A stretch of 64,000 nucleotides of DNA. Origin: Escherichia phage vB_EcoS_HZ_ZJUN2. The position numbers and the translations under genes are program-made. Below are positions 17,908 through 59,568 of this stretch, piece after piece (position 1 is the first letter of the stretch; every line of letters begins with the position of its first letter). Below the pieces are notes generated by a model. That model was not told the origin of the DNA and did not search any database. It saw nothing but the letters and a program-made list of their open reading frames with translations. The stretch is taken from the sequence record PP216084, one strand, 5' to 3'.

Positions 17908-17937
17908 ATTATACCAAATCTTTAAGCGATTCAGCAA
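17908..17937 (-). promoter_or_regulatory. sigma70-like promoter upstream of the polymerase gene (minus strand)
   Basis: Reverse complement TTGCTG - 18 bp - TATAAT. Confidence 0.45.
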
Positions 17938-18799
17938 CTAAAATTTCAATACGTTTTGCTAACATATCAATTTCATCTTTGTTTAAATCACCAGGATCTT
18001 TGCCTTCGGGCAGAAGAAAGTTAGCAACTACAGGTGTTAAACGCGTTTTTGTACGAATTAGCTTGGCCAACGCTTGTGCAGCTTTATTACCCGAAGCATC
18101 ATTATCTAGTAAGATAACAACAACTTTTACACCAGCAATAATATAAGGACTGAACTTATCTGCAATGTTATCTGAAGTGAACTGATGTGTACCAAAGCAG
18201 CAAGAAGCATAGTCTATACCGTTATCCTCTAGGTTCAGCATATCAAAGATACCTTCAACTAGAATAAGAACTGGAGTATTATATCGTACAGGGAAAATCG
18301 GTGGTGAAACTTGTTTTGGTTTTACTAAGTATTTAGGAGGGGCAGAACTGTTTATAGAACGACCCAAAAATAGGATATTGCGTCCAACAGCATCTGTGAT
18401 TGGGAATACAATTCTGCCTTCCCAGTCTGCTTGATGTTGGAAAGCAAAATATTTCTTCAAGGTCTTAGAACTTATACCTCGGAAATCACCTTCGAAAAGG
18501 TAAGCAGATTCAGGAATTGCAAGATTCGTTGATCCATTCCTAATCTCTGAAATCTTTTTACGTACCTGTGATAGTCTTGGAGACTGTCGGTACTGAGTCT
18601 CATTAAAATAATGGTAAATGCTCGGTATACCTTTACCGAAGCCACAACTCAAGCAGTGCATAATACCTGTTTCAGGATCAATACGCAAACTTGGGTGTTT
18701 ATCGTCATGATCTGGATTGAGACAACATATAAGAATATCACCACCTGTATCTTTATACTCAATGCCTTTCAGATCAAGTAGTTCTGTTATTCTACTCAT
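17909..18799 (-). CDS. DnaG-like DNA primase (zinc-binding domain + Toprim)
   Basis: CCLNPDHDDKHPS…HCLSCG zinc motif; Toprim LVEGIFDMLNLEDNG and LLDNDASGNKAA. Confidence 0.75.
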   Translation of the reverse strand: MSRITELLDLKGIEYKDTGGDILICCLNPDHDDKHPSLRIDPETGIMHCLSCGFGKGIPSIYHYFNETQYRQSPRLSQVRKKISEIRNGSTNLAIPESAYLFEGDFRGISSKTLKKYFAFQHQADWEGRIVFPITDAVGRNILFLGRSINSSAPPKYLVKPKQVSPPIFPVRYNTPVLILVEGIFDMLNLEDNGIDYASCCFGTHQFTSDNIADKFSPYIIAGVKVVVILLDNDASGNKAAQALAKLIRTKTRLTPVVANFLLPEGKDPGDLNKDEIDMLAKRIEILVAESLKDLV

Positions 18800-19329
18800 G
18801 AGTTTAGCTCCTCTAGTGCAGGATAATTAGATATATCAAAAATCTCTATAACAGCACGTTCTCCATGTAGATTAGTTCTCAGTATATTTGCTGAGTTTAC
18901 AGCTAATTCTAACTCTTCATACTTAAATCTGCCACCATTTTTAAGGTTGCCATTAGAGTCTCTTACCTGTACCCTCCATTTTTGTTTTTCAATATCCCAA
19001 GCAACTCCTAAGTACCCAGATTTACTACATGCTGTTTTATTTCTACTATTTTCCTGGGCTGTAGCATCTCTTAGATTACACCACCTATTATCAAAGGGTA
19101 TTCTGTTTACATGGTCTACTTTTTCAGGCAGTGTATTCTCCATAAATAGAAAAGCCATACGATGAGCTTTGTAATCCTTTCCATCTATGCCAATAATTAT
19201 ATAGTCATTAGAGTCTTTTCTAGTTACTATACTCCCAGCTTTCTGATTGCCTCTAGATACTTTTCTAGTAAACTCCCCAGTTTCTGGGGAGTAATCAAAT
19301 AACTCTTTTAGCCTTTCCTGTGTTATCAT
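18796..19329 (-). CDS. HNH homing endonuclease with AP2-like domain
   Basis: VDHVNRIPFDNRWCNLR HNH motif; GYLGVAW…GRF…ELA AP2-like segment. Confidence 0.7.
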   Translation of the reverse strand: MITQERLKELFDYSPETGEFTRKVSRGNQKAGSIVTRKDSNDYIIIGIDGKDYKAHRMAFLFMENTLPEKVDHVNRIPFDNRWCNLRDATAQENSRNKTACSKSGYLGVAWDIEKQKWRVQVRDSNGNLKNGGRFKYEELELAVNSANILRTNLHGERAVIEIFDISNYPALEELNS

Positions 19330-20849
19330 ATATCGCTGGCCTGTTCACCTGTTGAATTTTCAGCTTTGTCTTTCTTAGCACGTTTAGGTTGAGCCGGCTT
19401 ATCCTTCTCAATAGGGATAACGAACTCAGCTTCCATTTGAGATATATCTTCCATTGCTAGGTTGGTAGTGTTATCCATTCGCAGAGTTTCCCAGTTCATT
19501 TTAGGCATAAACTTCACGCTATCAGAAGAACGAGTCTTAACGAAGTCAAACATAATAGCACCTTGACCATTATCAGCTTTTGCAGCATTAAGATTAGCAG
19601 CCATGTCTGCGGAATCAAGAATCCCCTTTGACATACGTGTTCTACCATCTTGATCGATCTGGTAAGGAGCTACACCAGCCACGTTATGTTTCTGGCAGAT
19701 AGATTTGAAAGACGAGCTAACAACCATCTGTTCTTTCCAGTCATACATATCAATGGTTTTAGAGTCTGGAAGTCGGGTTTGGTTAATATAGTCCAGTAAG
19801 GCTACTGTAACTTTATCTCCATATCTAGCAACTAATTTATTTAGTTCTACGTCAACTGTTGTAATAGACAGCTCAGGGTCATAAACAATAATCATAGGAG
19901 TATGTAGTTCATACCCTTCTATTAGCTTACTCTCCATATCGTAGAAATCACTCATCTTAGCCATTGTGTATTGTTTAACGAAGTTATCAAAAAGCTCTTC
20001 ACCACCATTAAACATTCTAGCTCTAGTTCTGGCTAATCTCAACAGAGCTGCACCTTCTAGAGTATTATTACGCATTGCTAGTGCTGATACACCTGCTAAC
20101 ATGGCTAGATTACGTCTAAATACTTCATGTTCTTTCATCTCAATTGAGAAGTATGGAGCAATATCTCCATTCAAATATTGCTGAACCTGTATGTTTGAAC
20201 AGATAATGGATTTACCAGTACCACGCCAACCACCAAGCAGTAACGTTTCTGTGCGAGCTAAACCAATTTGAGCGTCGAACTCATTACAAATACCAAGAGC
20301 GATTAAGTTCAGTTTGGTATCTTCTTCTCTCTGGAAAATACGCATGTTATCTGCGTTGAATACTTTTCCAGTATTCGTTACTTTCTCTTCTAATTTTAAG
20401 TGAAGGGAGGCAACTCGGTTGAGAATTTCTCCCTGATCCAGCATTGTTAAATCTTGAAGCACGTCTGTTTCTAGAAGCTTCAGGAATAGATCCTGCGTAT
20501 ATTCGGCTTCTAGGACTTCAAGTGCCTGTTCCATGCTCACTTCTGGAATTTGAGTGTTAGCTAAGACGACTAGAGCTTGAGAAAGGCGGGCGTTCCTATT
20601 AGCTTCAAGCATAAGTGCGTCAATGGACGGCATTGTGTTATATTTTTTATAATAATTCTGGACGGCTTGGTAAATTGAGGAGAAAGCGTCATTAAAATGA
20701 TCTTTATGCAGTTTTGAGAATGTTTCCAATGCTATTTGCTTCTGTTCTGAAGCAAGAAGCATCTTCAACACTACAGCTTGCACGTTAAACAAGGTCATTC
20801 TCCTTTGCACGCTTTCGTGCCTTCTAAATGCAAAAAGGGGAAGGAGCAT
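19326..20849 (-). CDS. RecA-fold replicative helicase (DnaB-like)
   Basis: 507 aa; Walker A LLGGWRGTGKS. Confidence 0.65.
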   Translation of the reverse strand: MLLPLFAFRRHESVQRRMTLFNVQAVVLKMLLASEQKQIALETFSKLHKDHFNDAFSSIYQAVQNYYKKYNTMPSIDALMLEANRNARLSQALVVLANTQIPEVSMEQALEVLEAEYTQDLFLKLLETDVLQDLTMLDQGEILNRVASLHLKLEEKVTNTGKVFNADNMRIFQREEDTKLNLIALGICNEFDAQIGLARTETLLLGGWRGTGKSIICSNIQVQQYLNGDIAPYFSIEMKEHEVFRRNLAMLAGVSALAMRNNTLEGAALLRLARTRARMFNGGEELFDNFVKQYTMAKMSDFYDMESKLIEGYELHTPMIIVYDPELSITTVDVELNKLVARYGDKVTVALLDYINQTRLPDSKTIDMYDWKEQMVVSSSFKSICQKHNVAGVAPYQIDQDGRTRMSKGILDSADMAANLNAAKADNGQGAIMFDFVKTRSSDSVKFMPKMNWETLRMDNTTNLAMEDISQMEAEFVIPIEKDKPAQPKRAKKDKAENSTGEQASDI

Positions 20850-49251: not shown

Positions 49252-49694
49252 TGGAAGAGAATATTTTAGATGTTTTGCGTAGAGCTTTGCAGGATTCTAA
49301 GTTTAATGGTTCTGATAAAGAAGTCGCTAAAAGCTATCAGACCATAATCGGGGATCTTCAGCGTATTGATAAAGATTTCATCACTTCTGAACAATTTGTG
49401 TCTTATCTCAAAGCTCAACTAAAAAGCATTAACCAGATGAAAGCTAAACTTCATGGTCAAGATCTCGATAGTTATAGCTTACAGTCTGCTCAGTATGAGT
49501 ATATTCTAAATAAATGGTTGCAGGAGTATCTGCCTCCTCAGTTATCTGATACTGAGATTCGTAAATACTTTGCAGAATTAGTTAAGCTAAACCCTGGAAT
49601 TACAAAGGGTATGCTGATGAAAGCGATTAAGGAAGAATTTCCTGGGCGTTATGATGGTGGTACTGCTGCTCAGATTGCTGGCGAATTTAATTAA
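49251..49694 (+). CDS. hypothetical protein, GatB/YqeY-domain-like
   Basis: 147 aa; C-terminal …FPGRYDGGTAAQIAGEF resembles YqeY-type domain ends (weak). Confidence 0.45.
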   Translation: MEENILDVLRRALQDSKFNGSDKEVAKSYQTIIGDLQRIDKDFITSEQFVSYLKAQLKSINQMKAKLHGQDLDSYSLQSAQYEYILNKWLQEYLPPQLSDTEIRKYFAELVKLNPGITKGMLMKAIKEEFPGRYDGGTAAQIAGEFN

Positions 49695-49702
49695 AAATTT
49701 AT

Positions 49703-49731
49703 TTGCTAAATGCCTTTAAATTCTGTATAAT
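49703..49731 (+). promoter_or_regulatory. T5-type promoter driving an ORF-free ~0.8-kb region
   Basis: TTGCTA - 17 bp - TATAAT followed by ATATTCATAAATTAGGGAAC. Confidence 0.65.
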
Positions 49732-49954
49732 ATATTCATAAATTAGGGAACAGCGAGCCGATTACGCTGAATGCAGAATCCCAACCGGAGCGCATTGAAT
49801 AGAGTCGGTGGGTTAGTTGTAAAACTAGTACACAGGGGGCGGCAATCCCGGTTAGTGGCTAGAACGTGTAAAATGAGGCGTCTGAAACCTCTCCCCTAAA
49901 CTCTTCTCTAATTTATAAATAGTGGGGTGTGGAAATCACTTATGTAGTAACACT

Positions 49955-50026
49955 GCCGATCTAGTATAAACGGTATTATCAAGCCGTAACTGGTGGAAGA
50001 TGTAGGTTCGAATCCTACGATCGGTA
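49955..50026 (+). other. tRNA-like element with aberrant anticodon arm (possible pseudo-tRNA)
   Basis: 7-bp acceptor pairing GCCGATC/GATCGGT and perfect T-arm GTAGG-TTCGAAT-CCTAC, but no 5-bp anticodon stem with U33 and no encoded CCA. Confidence 0.3.
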
Positions 50027-50527
50027 AGAACTGGATAACTGGTGCTTTTAACGTAAAAGCTTCCGAGGTTAGTTGCGCACTGCCTAAACCACGCGGTAGT
50101 TGGTTCCAGACTAACCAACCAGTCTGCTGAATAGTTTTATTACGATTTAACTATGTCCAGGCTAAAGAAGAACTTTAGAAGGTATTCTAGGTAGTGAAGT
50201 TTTTCCTCCATATCGGAGTAGTTTTTCAAGCTACCAACAAAGTGGGAAATGCTGACATGAGAGATGTCACTAATGGTGCACAATAGCACAGGTAATTCGC
50301 GATAACTCCTGTTGAGTAGCAGCAAAAGGCGGGAAGTCATGACCCCAAGCCTAACCGAGTCCTCAATATACCGCAGGACATAACCACTAAGTCACCCTGA
50401 CTTAAACTGGAAAATAATAGACGTTACTGTATTTTGTCTTGAAATACTTAATGAGTGAGACTTATGACTCTCCCGGTATCGTCTGTATTTTTAAGAGTTT
50501 TTACGAGAGTTCTTAAAAATACTTAAA

Positions 50528-50636: not shown

Positions 50637-51584
50637 ATGTTTGCTACTAAAAACACTAAAGAACTGACTTATGAGCAAAAATTGATGCGTAATATCAAAC
50701 GTTGGGGTATTGGTGTTGCAGTTGGTTTGGTAGGTTTAGTTCTGGCCCTTAACTCCTATACTGTGGTTCAAGACGGTACTGTTAAAACCCAGACTTTCCT
50801 GGGTAAAGTTGACCCTAGCCCAGTATTACCAGGCTTTCATATTGTAAATCCTTTTGCTTCTTTCGATACTTTTAGTACTAAAGATATTGCTGTAAAATTA
50901 GATAAACTTCAGGTTCCTAGCCAGGATAAGTTTAAATCCACTGTTGACCTGACTGTTATGTTGCAGTTTGATGGTTCTAAGGCACCGATCAACCGTATTA
51001 ATGCAGGTACTCAGGATCAGGCGTTAGACAAATATGTAACTGAAAAATTACTGTCTACCATCCGTGAGTTTGGTAAGTCTGTACCTAAAGCACAAGATTT
51101 GTTTGATGCTAAAATTCAAGCACAATTACAAACTGCAATTCAACAGGAAGTTGAAGAGTATGCACGCCCTTATGGTTACACAGTTAAGCAAGTGTTCCTT
51201 CAGGATATCACATTACCACCGGTAATTATGGAACAGGTACAGAATACCAAAGTTCGTGAAGAACAAGTTAATGCTGCGAAAGCTGAATTGGCTCGTGTTG
51301 AACAAGAAGCACAGCAGAAGGTTAAACAAGCAGAAGCAGATCGTGAAGCTCGTAACAACCAAGCTATTGCAAACGAACGTGATGCAGATGCTAAACTGTA
51401 TGCAGCTAAGAAAGAAGCCGAAGCTAACGCCGCTCTGCAACGTACTATTACTCCTGAGATGATTCGCTGGAAACAACTAGAAGTTGAAATGACTCGTGCT
51501 CAGAAGTATCAAGGTGGTGTGCCGCAAACAGTAGTTGGCACTGGGTACGATGGCCGGATGATTATGGATATGCGTAACAAGTAA
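50637..51584 (+). CDS. SPFH/band-7 (prohibitin-like) membrane protein
   Basis: 315 aa; N-terminal TM helix WGIGVAVGLVGLVLAL; Ala/Glu/Gln-rich coiled coil. Confidence 0.6.
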   Translation: MFATKNTKELTYEQKLMRNIKRWGIGVAVGLVGLVLALNSYTVVQDGTVKTQTFLGKVDPSPVLPGFHIVNPFASFDTFSTKDIAVKLDKLQVPSQDKFKSTVDLTVMLQFDGSKAPINRINAGTQDQALDKYVTEKLLSTIREFGKSVPKAQDLFDAKIQAQLQTAIQQEVEEYARPYGYTVKQVFLQDITLPPVIMEQVQNTKVREEQVNAAKAELARVEQEAQQKVKQAEADREARNNQAIANERDADAKLYAAKKEAEANAALQRTITPEMIRWKQLEVEMTRAQKYQGGVPQTVVGTGYDGRMIMDMRNK

Positions 51585-51608
51585 TTCCCACACGTAATAT
51601 TCGAAGTA

Positions 51609-51648
51609 AGCCCTGTGTTCCCTGGAGAGCGCAGGGCTTTTCTGTTTT
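51609..51648 (+). terminator. intrinsic terminator
   Basis: Stem AAGCCCTG/CAGGGCTT followed by TTTTCTGTTTT. Confidence 0.7.
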
Positions 51649-51810
51649 AAGGTAGAGGATAAGTGTGTCTCTTTGGTCACTCAGCTATGACAAATACTTT
51701 ACACTATATCACATTGAAAATCAAGTGGGGATAACAATTTTGGGGTCTATCCACTTACCTGCTACCATTAAGCATCCTGTTATTTTCCTCTAAAAAGTTA
51801 AAAAATTCAA

Positions 51811-51839
51811 TTGCTTGAATGCTAAATTCTCTGTATAAT
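51811..51839 (+). promoter_or_regulatory. T5-type promoter
   Basis: TTGCTT - 17 bp - TATAAT followed by ATATTTATAAATTTGAGAGAGG. Confidence 0.65.
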
Positions 51840-51869
51840 ATATTTATAAATTTGAGAGAGGAATCTAGT

Positions 51870-52388
51870 ATGACTGTTGATGAACTAACAGAACATCTCT
51901 TATCTAGAGGGTTTGATACAGATAAGTATCATTGCTGGTTAAGCCAGGAAGGATGGCTAACAGTCCCGTTGTATGACTTCTCTGGGATGTTGAGAGGCTA
52001 TCAAACTTATAATCCTTCTGCTCCAAAAGGTCATGGTAAGTGTCCCTTTGAAGCTAAATATTTTACTTATTCTACTACCCAGTGTGTATGGGGATTAGAA
52101 ACTCTCAATGGAGATGAAAAAGTAGTATTGATTGCTGAATCTGTATTTAAGGCAGTTGCGTTACATAACGCTGGTTATCCAGCCCTGGCAATGTTGGGTT
52201 CTTCCCCCGGAAAAGCATTATTAAAGCAATTGAAATTATTACCTTTTAAATTGGTAGCTGTAGGAGATAATGATCCTGCGGGTGAAAAATTTGCTAGAAA
52301 ATTAAACGGCTTTGTTTCTCCTGTAGATGTAGATGAGATGTCTACCGAAAACTTGAAAAATTTTCTTGCTATGAAGCTAAATTTCTAA
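51870..52388 (+). CDS. small Toprim-domain protein
   Basis: Start at the ATG behind GAGAGAGGAATC; VVLIAESVFKAVAL…VAVGDNDPAGEK Toprim acidic motifs. Confidence 0.55.
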   Translation: MTVDELTEHLLSRGFDTDKYHCWLSQEGWLTVPLYDFSGMLRGYQTYNPSAPKGHGKCPFEAKYFTYSTTQCVWGLETLNGDEKVVLIAESVFKAVALHNAGYPALAMLGSSPGKALLKQLKLLPFKLVAVGDNDPAGEKFARKLNGFVSPVDVDEMSTENLKNFLAMKLNF

Positions 52389-52394
52389 TATAAT
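52366..52394 (+). promoter_or_regulatory. T5-type promoter overlapping the 3' end of the Toprim gene
   Basis: TTGCTA - 17 bp - TATAAT followed by ATATTTATAAATTCGGAAG. Confidence 0.6.
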
Positions 52395-52408
52395 ATATTT
52401 ATAAATTC

Positions 52409-52497
52409 GGAAGAATAGCATAACGGTATTGCAGCAGATTGCTAATCTGTCGGTTTGAAATATAGCCTTGTGGGTTCGATTCCCACTTCTTCCGCCA
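52409..52497 (+). tRNA. tRNA-Ser (anticodon GCT), long variable arm
   Basis: Acceptor GGAAGAA/TTCTTCC, anticodon loop TTGCTAA, 19-nt variable arm, T-loop TTCGATT, discriminator G, CCA. Confidence 0.7.
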
Positions 52498-52503
52498 AAT
52501 TCT

Positions 52504-52581
52504 GGTTCTCAAGCTCATATGGTATGAGCACCCAGCTCATAACTGGAAGGTACGTAGGTTCGAATCCTCGGGGAGCCACCA
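52504..52581 (+). tRNA. tRNA-Met-like (anticodon CAT)
   Basis: Acceptor GGTTCTC/GGGAGCC, D-stem GCTC/GAGC, anticodon loop CTCATAA, CCA; T-stem has only 3 clean pairs. Confidence 0.55.
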
Positions 52582-52604: not shown

Positions 52605-53288
52605 ATGAGAACTGATATACTCGATAGAAAGGAAGAAATAACTCAGTGGATAGCTCAGGGAAAATCTAAAGCAGAGATAGCAAGAATGCTATCTTGTGCC
52701 TCGAATACTCTAGAAGCATATTTAGGAAAACTAGGGATAATAATTACTCCTACTAATAGGCAGCAGGATAATAAATATAAGTCTGCAACAGAGTATTTAT
52801 ATAATGGCAGTCCTATCTCTTCCTATAGACTAAAGAATAAAATTCTTAACGAGGGACTAAAACCACATAAATGTGAGGGTTGCGGACTAGAAAGCTGGTT
52901 AAATAAACCAATTCCCTTAGAACTCGAGCATAAAGATGGAGACCACTATAATAATGAGTGGGACAACTTAGCCCTCCTATGCCCAAATTGTCATGCACTA
53001 ACACCTACTCATGCAGGCAAAAATATTGGCAGGTATACAGAAAGGGTGGTAAATACATGTGCTATTTGTCATTGCGAAATTAGCCCAAAGGCAACGCACT
53101 GTAAATCATGTACCCCGAAAGAACTAACTATAAATCCAGATATTACTGCGGAGCAAATAGAGTATTGGGTATCTAAGTATTCCTGGGTTCGTGCCTCCAA
53201 AGAATTAGGATTATCTGACACGGGGTTAAGAAAAAGATATACGTCCTTAACAGGAAAAGATCCTAAAAGTATTAAGAAAAGTAGGTAG
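52605..53288 (+). CDS. HNH homing endonuclease with N-terminal HTH and shared C-terminal module
   Basis: CEGCG…ELEHKDGDHYNNEWDNLALLCPNCHA; C-terminal ELGLSDTGLRKRYTSL also present in 55476-56057. Confidence 0.7.
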   Translation: MRTDILDRKEEITQWIAQGKSKAEIARMLSCASNTLEAYLGKLGIIITPTNRQQDNKYKSATEYLYNGSPISSYRLKNKILNEGLKPHKCEGCGLESWLNKPIPLELEHKDGDHYNNEWDNLALLCPNCHALTPTHAGKNIGRYTERVVNTCAICHCEISPKATHCKSCTPKELTINPDITAEQIEYWVSKYSWVRASKELGLSDTGLRKRYTSLTGKDPKSIKKSR

Positions 53289-54249: not shown

Positions 54250-54337
54250 GGGCGTTTATTCCGTAAGTGGTAGCGGAGGGGAATGTAAATCCCTGGTCAT
54301 TGCGACTCGAGTGGTTCGACTCCATTAACGCCCACCA
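54250..54337 (+). tRNA. tRNA-Tyr (anticodon GTA), long variable arm
   Basis: Acceptor GGGCGTT/AACGCCC, anticodon stem GGGGA/TCCCT, loop ATGTAAA, CCA. Confidence 0.65.
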
Positions 54338-54511: not shown

Positions 54512-54586
54512 GCACCTTTAGCTGAGATGGATTAGCGCTTGCCTGAAGAGCTTGAAAGGTTGGATCGTTACCAACGGGGTGCACCA
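54512..54586 (+). tRNA. tRNA-Phe (anticodon GAA)
   Basis: Acceptor GCACCTT/GGGGTGC, D-stem GCTG/TAGC, anticodon loop CTGAAGA, CCA; anticodon stem has two U-U pairs, T-loop ATCGTTA is atypical. Confidence 0.55.
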
Positions 54587-54603: not shown

Positions 54604-54876
54604 ATGCATCCTGAAAACTTCTTTATTTACTGCGCGGATAAGTCGCTGAAACGTAGAATTAACAAAGTCTATCATTATCGTGCTAGTCAACAGCCTTATG
54701 TATACGCTTTTGACGGTGATCACATTCCACTAGAACAATTATCTTGTGATTACATGATATTGAAGAACTTTGACGAGACGAAGATCTCAAGCGTTTATAA
54801 TCGACAGAATCCATTAACGTGGAAATATAAGAAGAAAAAGAAAGGCATCAAATTCTTAAAAAATATAGTTGCTTAG
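54604..54876 (+). CDS. hypothetical protein
   Basis: ATG at 54604 behind GAAGGAG, directly after tRNA-Phe. Confidence 0.45.
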   Translation: MHPENFFIYCADKSLKRRINKVYHYRASQQPYVYAFDGDHIPLEQLSCDYMILKNFDETKISSVYNRQNPLTWKYKKKKKGIKFLKNIVA

Positions 54877-54897
54877 TTTCCAAAAGTTCTGTATAAT
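54869..54897 (+). promoter_or_regulatory. T5-type promoter
   Basis: TTGCTT - 17 bp - TATAAT followed by AATTACATAAATTGAACTGGAG. Confidence 0.6.
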
Positions 54898-54945
54898 AAT
54901 TACATAAATTGAACTGGAGAAGCAACATGATAGAACAAGATAAAT

Positions 54946-56836: not shown

Positions 56837-56936
56837 AACAATTGCGGGTGGGAGGCATAGAGTTCTTCTTAGTCTCATAAGCTAAGTAAGTCCAGGGCAG
56901 TACTGGAACCCGCTACCAATTTCAAGAAAAACTCAT

Positions 56937-56965
56937 TTGCTTAATGCTTAATTTCTTGTTATAAT
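56937..56965 (+). promoter_or_regulatory. T5-type promoter driving an ORF-free ~0.3-kb leader and the Ala/Leu tRNAs
   Basis: TTGCTT - 17 bp - TATAAT followed by ATTTATATAAATTGATGCG. Confidence 0.65.
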
Positions 56966-56971
56966 ATTTAT

Positions 56972-57297
56972 ATAAATTGATGCGAAAATAGCTGCCTAGA
57001 TACCAGGTGTATGACGTCTACACTAGCAGAGCTACCGAAAAAGAGATCCTCAGGATAAACGTCGTAGCAAAATTAGTCTGGTATCCATCAATTTAGTTCA
57101 CTAAGGTATTAGCTCGACCTAGGACTGGCTGCCAAAAAGCACGATCCCTACGACTTGGGAGAAGTTCTAGATTAGTCCACTAGATTCAGCGGCAACTGAA
57201 TAGTGTATTGGGTTTGCGAGATGACGCGGTTCCTTCCGCTCGAAGCGAAGGTGCTGTAGTTACGCCGAGCTAATAGCCTTAGTAAACTAAAGAATTT
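56972..57297 (+). ncRNA. candidate non-coding RNA / structured precursor leader
   Basis: ~325 nt between promoter and tRNA-Ala with no plus-strand ORF longer than 15 codons; local hairpins such as CCTTCCGC-TCGAA-GCGAAGG. Confidence 0.3.
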
Positions 57298-59419: not shown

Positions 59420-59494
59420 GCTCCTAAAGCATTGTTGGCGATGCAGTTGCCTTGTAAGCATCTGAGCTGGGTTCGATTCCTAGTGGGAGCACCA
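59420..59494 (+). tRNA. tRNA-Thr (anticodon TGT)
   Basis: Acceptor GCTCCTA/TGGGAGC, D-stem GCAT/ATGC, anticodon loop CTTGTAA, T-arm CTGGG-TTCGATT-CCTAG, CCA. Confidence 0.6.
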
Positions 59495-59509
59495 AATTTA
59501 AAAATTCAT

Positions 59510-59538
59510 TTGCTTTCTCTCTTATTTATTGTTATAAT
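59510..59538 (+). promoter_or_regulatory. T5-type promoter
   Basis: TTGCTT - 17 bp - TATAAT followed by ATTTACATAAATTAATGAGAGGG. Confidence 0.65.
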
Positions 59539-59568
59539 ATTTACATAAATTAATGAGAGGGAAACCAA

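Follow-up and report, generated by a model that had tools for sequence, protein, structure and literature searches.

The stand-alone Toprim protein encoded among the tRNA genes of a T5-like phage is almost certainly an ortholog of the retron anti-defence protein Rad

Introduction

Escherichia phage vB_EcoS_HZ_ZJUN2 (record PP216084) is a T5-like phage (Tequintavirus). The stretch of its DNA analyzed here, 64,000 nucleotides long and hereafter called the window, encodes within its tRNA island a small stand-alone protein carrying the acidic motifs of a Toprim domain. This raises the question of what such a protein does in a phage that also encodes a DnaG-like primase. A preliminary description of the window had proposed a second primase-like or nuclease-like factor. 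As a description this is compatible with the known data, and the gene already has a name, being known as Rad/ORF75, an inhibitor of retron defence. In the following, we establish the gene and its start codon, compare its product with Rad and with DnaG-type enzymes, and weigh the ways in which it could act.

Results

The gene and its start codon

The open reading frame, its length of 172 aa and its acidic motifs were all found as they had been described, within the tRNA island (Table 1). The profile search matched the product to PHROG 849 “DNA primase” (E=8.5e-62), and Pfam Toprim_2 scored 25.2 bits, against a gathering cut-off of 22.1. A homolog of the gene is present in 484 phage records. In the 1.1 kb around the gene, the identity is 98.7% with Escherichia phage HildyBeyeler and about 95% with T5 and BF23. 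The first 124 bases of this query match HildyBeyeler, H8, and Shivani, and not T5. The codon differences are 20 synonymous and 4 non-synonymous relative to T5, and 19 and 3 relative to SP15, a clear sign of strong purifying selection at the sequence level. Judged by its sequence, rad is a genuine conserved gene, far beyond a chance ORF. The possibility of a pseudogene fragment split off by the neighboring HNH endonuclease was also considered, and it was ruled out, since the gene is under purifying selection and the members of its family are of constant length.

An alternative reading of 189 aa, starting from ATG 51819, is present in the ORF list and was used both by the SP15 record and by the Rad preprint. 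This ATG falls between the -35 and -10 boxes of the gene’s own promoter, and the extension of 51 nt (17 codons) has changed in 4/17 codons between this phage and SP15, evolving like non-coding DNA, unlike the coding sequence. For these reasons, and because of the position of the T5 promoter P15a, annotated as ending 5 nt before the 172-aa CDS, the 189-aa start was rejected. The distant homologs begin at the downstream Met, and the numbering of the mutants in the preprint (R13, P33, I88, D135, E156) matches the 172-aa protein; taken together with the promoter position and the divergence of the extension, this means that the 172 aa of the preliminary description were right. The length of 189 aa found in the database and in the preprint is probably the product of an over-extended start.

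Table 1. Features of the rad region and of the primase region in the window.
Feature	Position	Strand	Remarks
Primase gene	17909-18799	-	296 aa, CHC2-type zinc-finger sequence at the start
ORF of 177 aa	18796-19329	-	between the primase gene and the next upstream ORF (19326-20849), overlapping each by 4 nt
tRNA-Ser call	49954-50027		ARAGORN, unusual anticodon ACT; Rfam tRNA support only 39 bits
Intrinsic-terminator-like hairpin	51608-51639	+	13-pair stem, then T-run; ends the band-7/lipoprotein gene (50637-51584)
Promoter of rad, copy of the 67-nt early-promoter repeat	51793-51859	+	-35 TTGCTT 51811-51816, 17-nt spacer, -10 TATAAT 51834-51839; equivalent to T5 P15a
Shine-Dalgarno GAGG	51858-51861	+	8 nt ahead of ATG 51870; read from the sequence
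rad	51870-52388	+	ATG 51870, stop TAA 52386-52388; almost certain ortholog of T5.076 / T5p074 / SP15 ORF75; 172 aa, predicted minimal DnaG-type RNA-polymerase core (N-subdomain plus Toprim)
tRNA promoter, second flanking repeat copy	52348-52414	+	-35 TTGCTA 52366-52371, -10 TATAAT 52389-52394; equals T5 P15b
tRNA-Ser (GCU)	52409-52497	+	ARAGORN; Rfam 60.5 bits; T5 tRNAS3; first gene after the promoter overlapping the rad 3' end
tRNA, anticodon CAU	52504-52578	+	Rfam 38.2 bits; missed by ARAGORN; T5 tRNAI2(CAU)
HNH homing endonuclease	52605-53288		ortholog of T5 hegA / F-TflIV
tRNA-Tyr (GUA)	54250-54337		ARAGORN call, absent from the Rfam gathering-threshold list
tRNA gene, T5 tRNA-Phe position	54512-54583		second one missed by ARAGORN; Rfam 32.6 bits
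67-nt promoter repeats	49685-49751, 51793-51859, 52348-52414, 54851-54917, 56919-56985, 59492-59558		repeat family D2

Promoters, terminator, and tRNA genes around rad

The gene lies within an array of more than 20 tRNA genes. The hairpin upstream separates the band-7/lipoprotein gene from the rad transcription unit, and the orthologous lipoprotein gene of T5 is followed by an annotated bidirectional terminator. In T5, the three opposite-strand genes T5.077-T5.079 lie between the lipoprotein gene and rad; they are missing from the corresponding interval of the window (51585-51869).

The overlap between the gene and the promoter of the downstream tRNAs was borne out. The -35 box sits in the last 23 bases of the coding sequence, the -10 box begins directly after the stop codon, and T5 annotates P15b here. 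The promoter had been assigned to Ser and Met tRNAs: the Ser assignment stands, and the Met assignment does not, the tRNA with anticodon CAU being annotated as tRNA-Ile2 in T5 and as “tRNA-Met” in automatic annotations.

The six 67-nt direct repeats of the tRNA island are its early promoters, with 64-75% identity to the reference copy. Two of them bracket rad as direct repeats, and recombination between such copies could lose or gain the gene. Immediately behind tRNA-Ser and tRNA(CAU) comes the HNH homing endonuclease gene; for T6, the amplification of anti-defence loci by a homing endonuclease of the tRNA region was recently reported. Besides rad, the phage of the window carries a gene for tRNA-Tyr, which in its phage-encoded form has been published as the second factor determining the escape from retron-Eco7 (PMC11555353).

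Identity with Rad

In the longer reading, 182/189 residues (96%) are identical to SP15 E0157_075 (ORF75), and no difference is found from residue 30 onward; 3 amino-acid differences fall within the 172 aa. Relative to T5.076, 168/172 residues are identical, with 4 amino-acid differences. The deposited names of T5.076/T5p074 are “DNA primase” or “DNA primase-like protein, contains toprim domain.” As in T5 and SP15, the gene stands in a tRNA-rich region directly upstream of tRNA-Ser(GCU) and tRNA(CAU), with its own promoter upstream and with the same neighbors; the overall identity is 96-98%, and the absence of T5.077-079 distinguishes the phage of the window from T5. All five residues whose mutation weakens Rad (R13, P33, I88, D135, and E156) are present in the protein of the window (5/5); four of them do not vary among close homologs, and the column counts of the family include all five. 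On this comparison of sequences, the gene is almost certainly the ortholog of Rad (SP15 ORF75, T5.076).

ORF75 was named Rad, for retron anti-defence, by Azam et al. (preprint 10.1101/2023.03.15.532788). Expressed alone, it allows T5n and SP15m, deletion mutants that lack 8 kb, to plate again on cells carrying retrons Ec67/Eco2 and Ec78/Eco7 (10.1101/2023.03.15.532788; PMC11555353), and the preprint only also reports effectiveness against Ec83, Ec48, and Se72, as well as anti-retron activity of the homolog of Proteus phage Privateer. In the presence of Rad, the msr-msd ncRNA and the msDNA were reduced, and the mRNAs of RT and effector were not (10.1101/2023.03.15.532788). The experiments on anti-retron activity concern the SP15, T5, and Privateer proteins only (10.1101/2023.03.15.532788; PMC11555353). 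The peer-reviewed version keeps the phenotype and drops the ncRNA claim, stating that the mechanism “could not be determined” and leaving the function for later (PMC11555353). A search of the later literature for a solved mechanism of Rad was negative: ORF75 is just called a retron inhibitor there, or the preprint is cited, and one of the papers names it “the anti-defense protein Rad” (PMC12673091). The inhibition of retrons by Rad is not universal, because T5 with ORF75 and its full tRNA set fails to evade the FORC82 type I-A retron (PMC12475279).

The gene rad is an accessory early gene of T5-like phages, located in their dispensable tRNA-rich region. It is already annotated in T5, and its name and phenotype are already published; as such, it is an ordinary, known gene. 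What remains of interest is the mechanism, a covariation in the active site, and the links to CCA-adding enzymes.

Fold of the protein

The AlphaFold (AF2) model built on the family alignment had a pLDDT of 90.3 and a pTM of 0.85. Its best PDB matches in Foldseek were the DnaG catalytic cores of E. coli, Aquifex, Pseudomonas, Mycobacterium, and S. aureus, together with the T7 gp4 primase and Twinkle. The alignments to DnaG-type structures cover about 165-240 columns with query TM-scores of 0.51-0.69 (the best being 0.64-0.69 over about 170-190 columns); E. coli DnaG 1dde was found with E=7e-7, and the T7 primase fragment 1nui with a query TM-score of 0.69 over 186 columns. The viral structures matched by the model are all DnaG-like primases. 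Coherently, hhalign aligned the 113-member family profile to E. coli DnaG residues 169-364 with a probability of 97.6%. The family profile is needed to see this relationship: a single-sequence search of the PDB sequences returned noise only (xylanases, E about 0.3). The N-terminal helix is less certain, since the alignment of R13 to DnaG R146 or to DnaG residue 183 is ambiguous, and it was not used.

Because of the PDB matches of the model and of the hhalign alignment to DnaG 169-364, the protein is read as the DnaG N-subdomain plus Toprim. In other words, the model goes beyond a Toprim domain alone and shows the whole protein as a shortened RNA-polymerase core of the DnaG type. Profile, profile-profile, and fold searches all agree on the Toprim fold, and none assigned the protein to another one. 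The preliminary description was therefore right about the fold; the extent has to be widened, from about 60 residues to the entire protein.

The two-subdomain fold is common to Rad, E. coli DnaG (1dde/3b39), T7 gp4 (1nui), and T4 gp61. Unlike DnaG, Rad lacks several modules and is apparently not needed for replication. No CHC2 zinc-binding domain was found: Pfam gave no zinc-ribbon match, and the alignment starts only at DnaG residue 169. The last residue corresponds to DnaG residue 364, the C-terminal helical subdomain being absent, and the 172 aa stop right after the Toprim domain, leaving neither a helicase-interaction domain nor a helicase fusion.

The Toprim metal centre is also that of RNase M5, the OLD-family protein AriB, P2 OLD, and the Toprim effector of retron-Eco2. 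As Toprim ribonucleases and defence nucleases, they show that this domain is able to cleave structured RNA (5S precursor, tRNAs), and a cleavage of this kind is what we propose for Rad. However, they match only the Toprim part of Rad, roughly 100 residues (query TM-score 0.44; about 95-112 columns for the RNase M5 Toprim structures), and they carry an ABC ATPase, an RT, or the RNase M5 C-domain, whereas Rad has no ATPase and its N-terminal half is DnaG-type. An OLD or RNase M5-type architecture is thus absent. Other DnaG/Toprim cores without the bacterial zinc finger, truncated DnaG paralogs whose roles lie outside priming, are found in RNA metabolism or associated with RTs: the archaeal exosome DnaG, Mycoplasma MG010, and the “RTasDnaG-like” protein of PADLOC DRT systems. 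The match of Rad to MG010 (“DNA primase-like protein”) has E=1.3e-4, far below its cut-off, and that to PADLOC PDLC03800 (“RTasDnaG-like”) has E=5e-7 and covers residues 84-145, the Toprim core only. Orthology of Rad to MG010 or PDLC03800 is not supported by this weak, Toprim-core-level similarity.

Rad and the primase of the phage

The preliminary description had set the protein apart from the DnaG-like primase encoded elsewhere in the window, and this distinction holds. The primase is real (Table 1): it matches TIGR01391 dnaG with 2.2e-21, below the curated cut-off of that model, and shares only about 23% identity with the rad product. A duplication of the primase gene as the origin of rad was rejected on the basis of this identity and of the E-value between the two (E=0.036). 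A separate primase or primase-helicase was present in every phage checked, namely, the T5-like phages, Privateer, Jerseyvirus, and a further viral locus carrying a Rad homolog (L026). Rad is not the replicative primase. Beside the primase gene, the 177-aa ORF on the same strand looks, from its sequence, like an insert of the homing-endonuclease type.

Active site and covariation

The Toprim acidic motifs of the rad product are E90, D133-N-D135 (D133-x-D135), and D153-x-D155-E156. In E. coli K-12 DnaG, the equivalent positions are E265 for E90, D269 for position 94, D309 and D311 for D133 and D135, and D345 and D347 for D153 and D155. DnaG-type primases have the Glu, DxD, and DxD-like acids at positions equivalent to those of Rad, and also a motif-III-like [KR]-Y. 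Among the 113 family members of the alignment, E90 is kept in 112, D133 in 99, D135 in 106, and D153 in 103, so that each of these metal-site acids is at least 88% conserved. R13 is kept in 110/113, Y47 in 111/113, [KR]63 in 112/113, and Y64 in all 113.

The full motif set of the DnaG catalytic core (EGxxD, the Arg of motif II, and the C-terminal subdomain) is not present. The protein has ESVFK instead of EGxxD: unlike in DnaG, the position of D269 is Lys in the T5 clade, and that of R221 is not Arg, being Gln45 or Tyr47 by alignment. Position 94 is bimodal among the 87 Rad homologs taken from gene loci. Here K94 always occurs with D155-E156 (n=31), and D94 occurs with G155 or N155 (n=56). The pattern looks like the relocation of one acidic ligand with preservation of the metal site, and the two combinations define two active-site subtypes, K94/D155-E156 and D94/Gly/Asn155. 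In the preprint, activity is described for the proteins of T5, SP15, and Privateer, each of which belongs to the K94 type. This covariation is a small new observation.

The family, its fusions, and its gene neighborhoods

A word-indexed homolog search returned just 7 proteins, and the family came into view only with an exhaustive HMM search. Run on a library of 1.84 billion proteins, the latter found 1069 cluster representatives with E<=1e-3, 381 of them with E<=1e-10. Most members are stand-alone proteins of 160-190 aa. Two of the 150 best matches are fused to parts of CCA-adding enzymes: one (P0085, on a 7.4-kb contig) has a CCA-adding enzyme, with PolyA_pol head, RNA-binding, and HD domains, followed by a C-terminal Rad domain, and the other (P0113) has a Rad domain followed by a PolyA_pol head. 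Other fusions join Rad to a cytidylyltransferase-like domain, to GNAT and Arr (GNAT + Rad + Arr), to Mom (Rad + Mom), and to a DUF3268 zinc finger.

The gene neighborhoods of several unrelated phages contain the same type of enzyme. In Shewanella phage 1/40 (L005, 3691-5546) and in Vibrio phage F92 (L006, 3703-5537), the gene of the homolog and the 3' end of a tRNA nucleotidyltransferase gene overlap, and a CCA-like gene adjoins the homolog in two viral contigs (L023, 6395-8747; L026, 7974-10310). Considering 29 non-redundant viral loci and a distance of two genes, the neighbors include NAMPT/NAPRTase in four loci, CCA-adding enzymes in two, SNF2 helicases in two, and also a cytidylyltransferase and a NUDIX protein. 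The link to CCA-adding enzymes is recurrent but rare, and it is a new observation. NAMPT and NAPRTase belong to NAD+ salvage and are known counter-defence functions. In the locus of Shewanella phage 1/40, genes for ribose-phosphate pyrophosphokinase and phosphoribosyltransferase lie two and three genes downstream of the homolog. Together with the NAMPT/NAPRTase neighbors, these genes suggest anti-defence islands, and the common thread of the loci is an accessory or anti-defence neighborhood. In Privateer and in Jersey-like phages, a helicase gene immediately precedes the homolog, which is located within the replication gene cluster. Enrichment near tRNA genes was also sought in 60 viral loci: homologs embedded in tRNA arrays were found in 5/60, recurrent but not clearly above expectation, and we make no claim of enrichment.

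Discussion

How may Rad act on retrons?

The explanation that we favor, and that we consider probable with some reserve when taken as a whole, is that the Rad ortholog cleaves or destabilizes the retron ncRNA/msDNA through its metal centre. The DnaG-type groove would bind the structured ncRNA, or the RNA-DNA hybrid, that is common to all retrons. The Toprim metal centre would then cleave or destabilize the bound ncRNA or hybrid in a metal-dependent manner, as RNase M5 and OLD-family enzymes cut structured RNAs. With the loss of ncRNA/msDNA, the sensor-antitoxin complex of the retron would not be built, and the effector would never be armed against the phage. The conserved metal ligands and the apparent relocation of one of them argue for catalysis rather than for a dead scaffold. 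For the nuclease step in particular, proposed by analogy, we see chances that are roughly balanced. The closest folds are those of polymerases, and we know of no nuclease activity shown for any DnaG-clade Toprim protein with the architecture of Rad. Moreover, the degradation of the ncRNA is derived solely from the reduced steady-state levels in the preprint, a claim that was dropped from the published version (PMC11555353). The presence of a homolog in the replication module of some phages also speaks against this explanation.

Rad could also act without cutting. In this case, it would be a stoichiometric binder, sequestering the ncRNA/msDNA or blocking the 2'-OH priming by the retron RT, or it would have kept nucleotidyl-transfer chemistry and synthesize short RNAs on the single-stranded msDNA or on the ncRNA as template, and so remodel the molecule that the effector monitors; the drop in ncRNA would be secondary decay. 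The single mutants of the catalytic site, which only slightly reduce the activity (10.1101/2023.03.15.532788), are coherent with this possibility. So are the superposition of the entire protein on the RNA-polymerase domains of primases, the natural ligands of which are ssDNA, NTPs, and RNA-DNA hybrids, and the invariance or near invariance of the DnaG motif-III-like [KR]63-Y64. However, DnaG-type primases need the zinc-binding domain and the C-terminal subdomain for template recognition and primer synthesis. Both are absent here, and the position of DnaG Arg221 is occupied by Gln45 or Tyr47, which weighs against a residual polymerase; against pure binding, the strict conservation of the metal ligands and the compensatory relocation favor catalysis. 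We judge a non-cutting action unlikely, though it deserves serious consideration.

The links to CCA-adding enzymes bring in a different primary role, in which the family would process or repair the ends of RNAs and tRNAs, for example by trimming the 3' ends of damaged or precursor tRNAs for CCA rebuilding, with the retron ncRNA as a collateral target or as one acquired secondarily. Rad would then be a phage RNA-end/tRNA nuclease of DnaG ancestry working with CCA-adding enzymes, with the retron ncRNA as one of several structured-RNA substrates. Such a nuclease would explain the two fusions, the overlapping genes in the Shewanella and Vibrio phages, and the residence in tRNA islands. The adjacency in the two contigs, the homologs in the tRNA arrays of T5-like phages and of the 5/60 unrelated viral loci, and the maturation of structured RNA by RNase M5, itself a Toprim RNase, point in the same direction. 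On the other hand, these links concern a minority (2/150 best matches fused, 2/29 non-redundant loci neighboring), a tRNA proximity of 5/60 is about that of a random accessory gene in a large phage, and T5-like phages have no adjacent CCA enzyme. Furthermore, tRNA islands generally collect accessory and anti-defence genes (PMC11555353), and Rad expressed by itself is active although neither phage tRNAs nor a phage CCA enzyme are present (10.1101/2023.03.15.532788). Both as the primary role of the family and in its broader form, RNA-end processing appears to us rather improbable. Within this reading, the substrate could differ between the K94/D155 and D94/G155 subtypes.

The many records annotated as “DNA primase,” and the location after the helicase gene in the replication clusters of Privateer and Jersey-like phages, would suit an auxiliary replication factor, that is, a second catalytic primase subunit working in trans with a primase zinc finger or a helicase. 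An essential role in replication is unlikely because the 8-kb deletion mutants of T5 and SP15 are viable, being defective only on retron hosts (PMC11555353), and Rad acts on retrons in uninfected cells (10.1101/2023.03.15.532788). In addition, the zinc-finger and helicase-binding modules are absent, and rad lies 33 kb away from the replication genes of T5, among tRNAs. We give very little credit to this role. Even less can be given to a functionless, decaying fragment of a duplicated primase gene, a reading that has practically no chance of being correct. The truncation at both ends relative to DnaG would fit it, but it is already refuted by the strong purifying selection, by the hundreds of stand-alone homologs with the same length and conserved active-site residues, by the promoter and Shine-Dalgarno sequence of the gene, and by the experimental phenotype (PMC11555353).

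Significance

The question of the mechanism of Rad is narrowed by these results: the protein is modeled as a whole DnaG core, its metal site is under selection, with a compensatory ligand swap, it is never the sole primase in the phages checked, and some of its relatives are linked to CCA-adding enzymes. Among phage proteins, Rad was the first for which an action against retrons of several types was reported, and therefore its orthologs mark phages that are likely to escape retron immunity. They are thus relevant to phage host range and to phage therapy, and Rad could interfere with retron-based genome editors or serve to control them.
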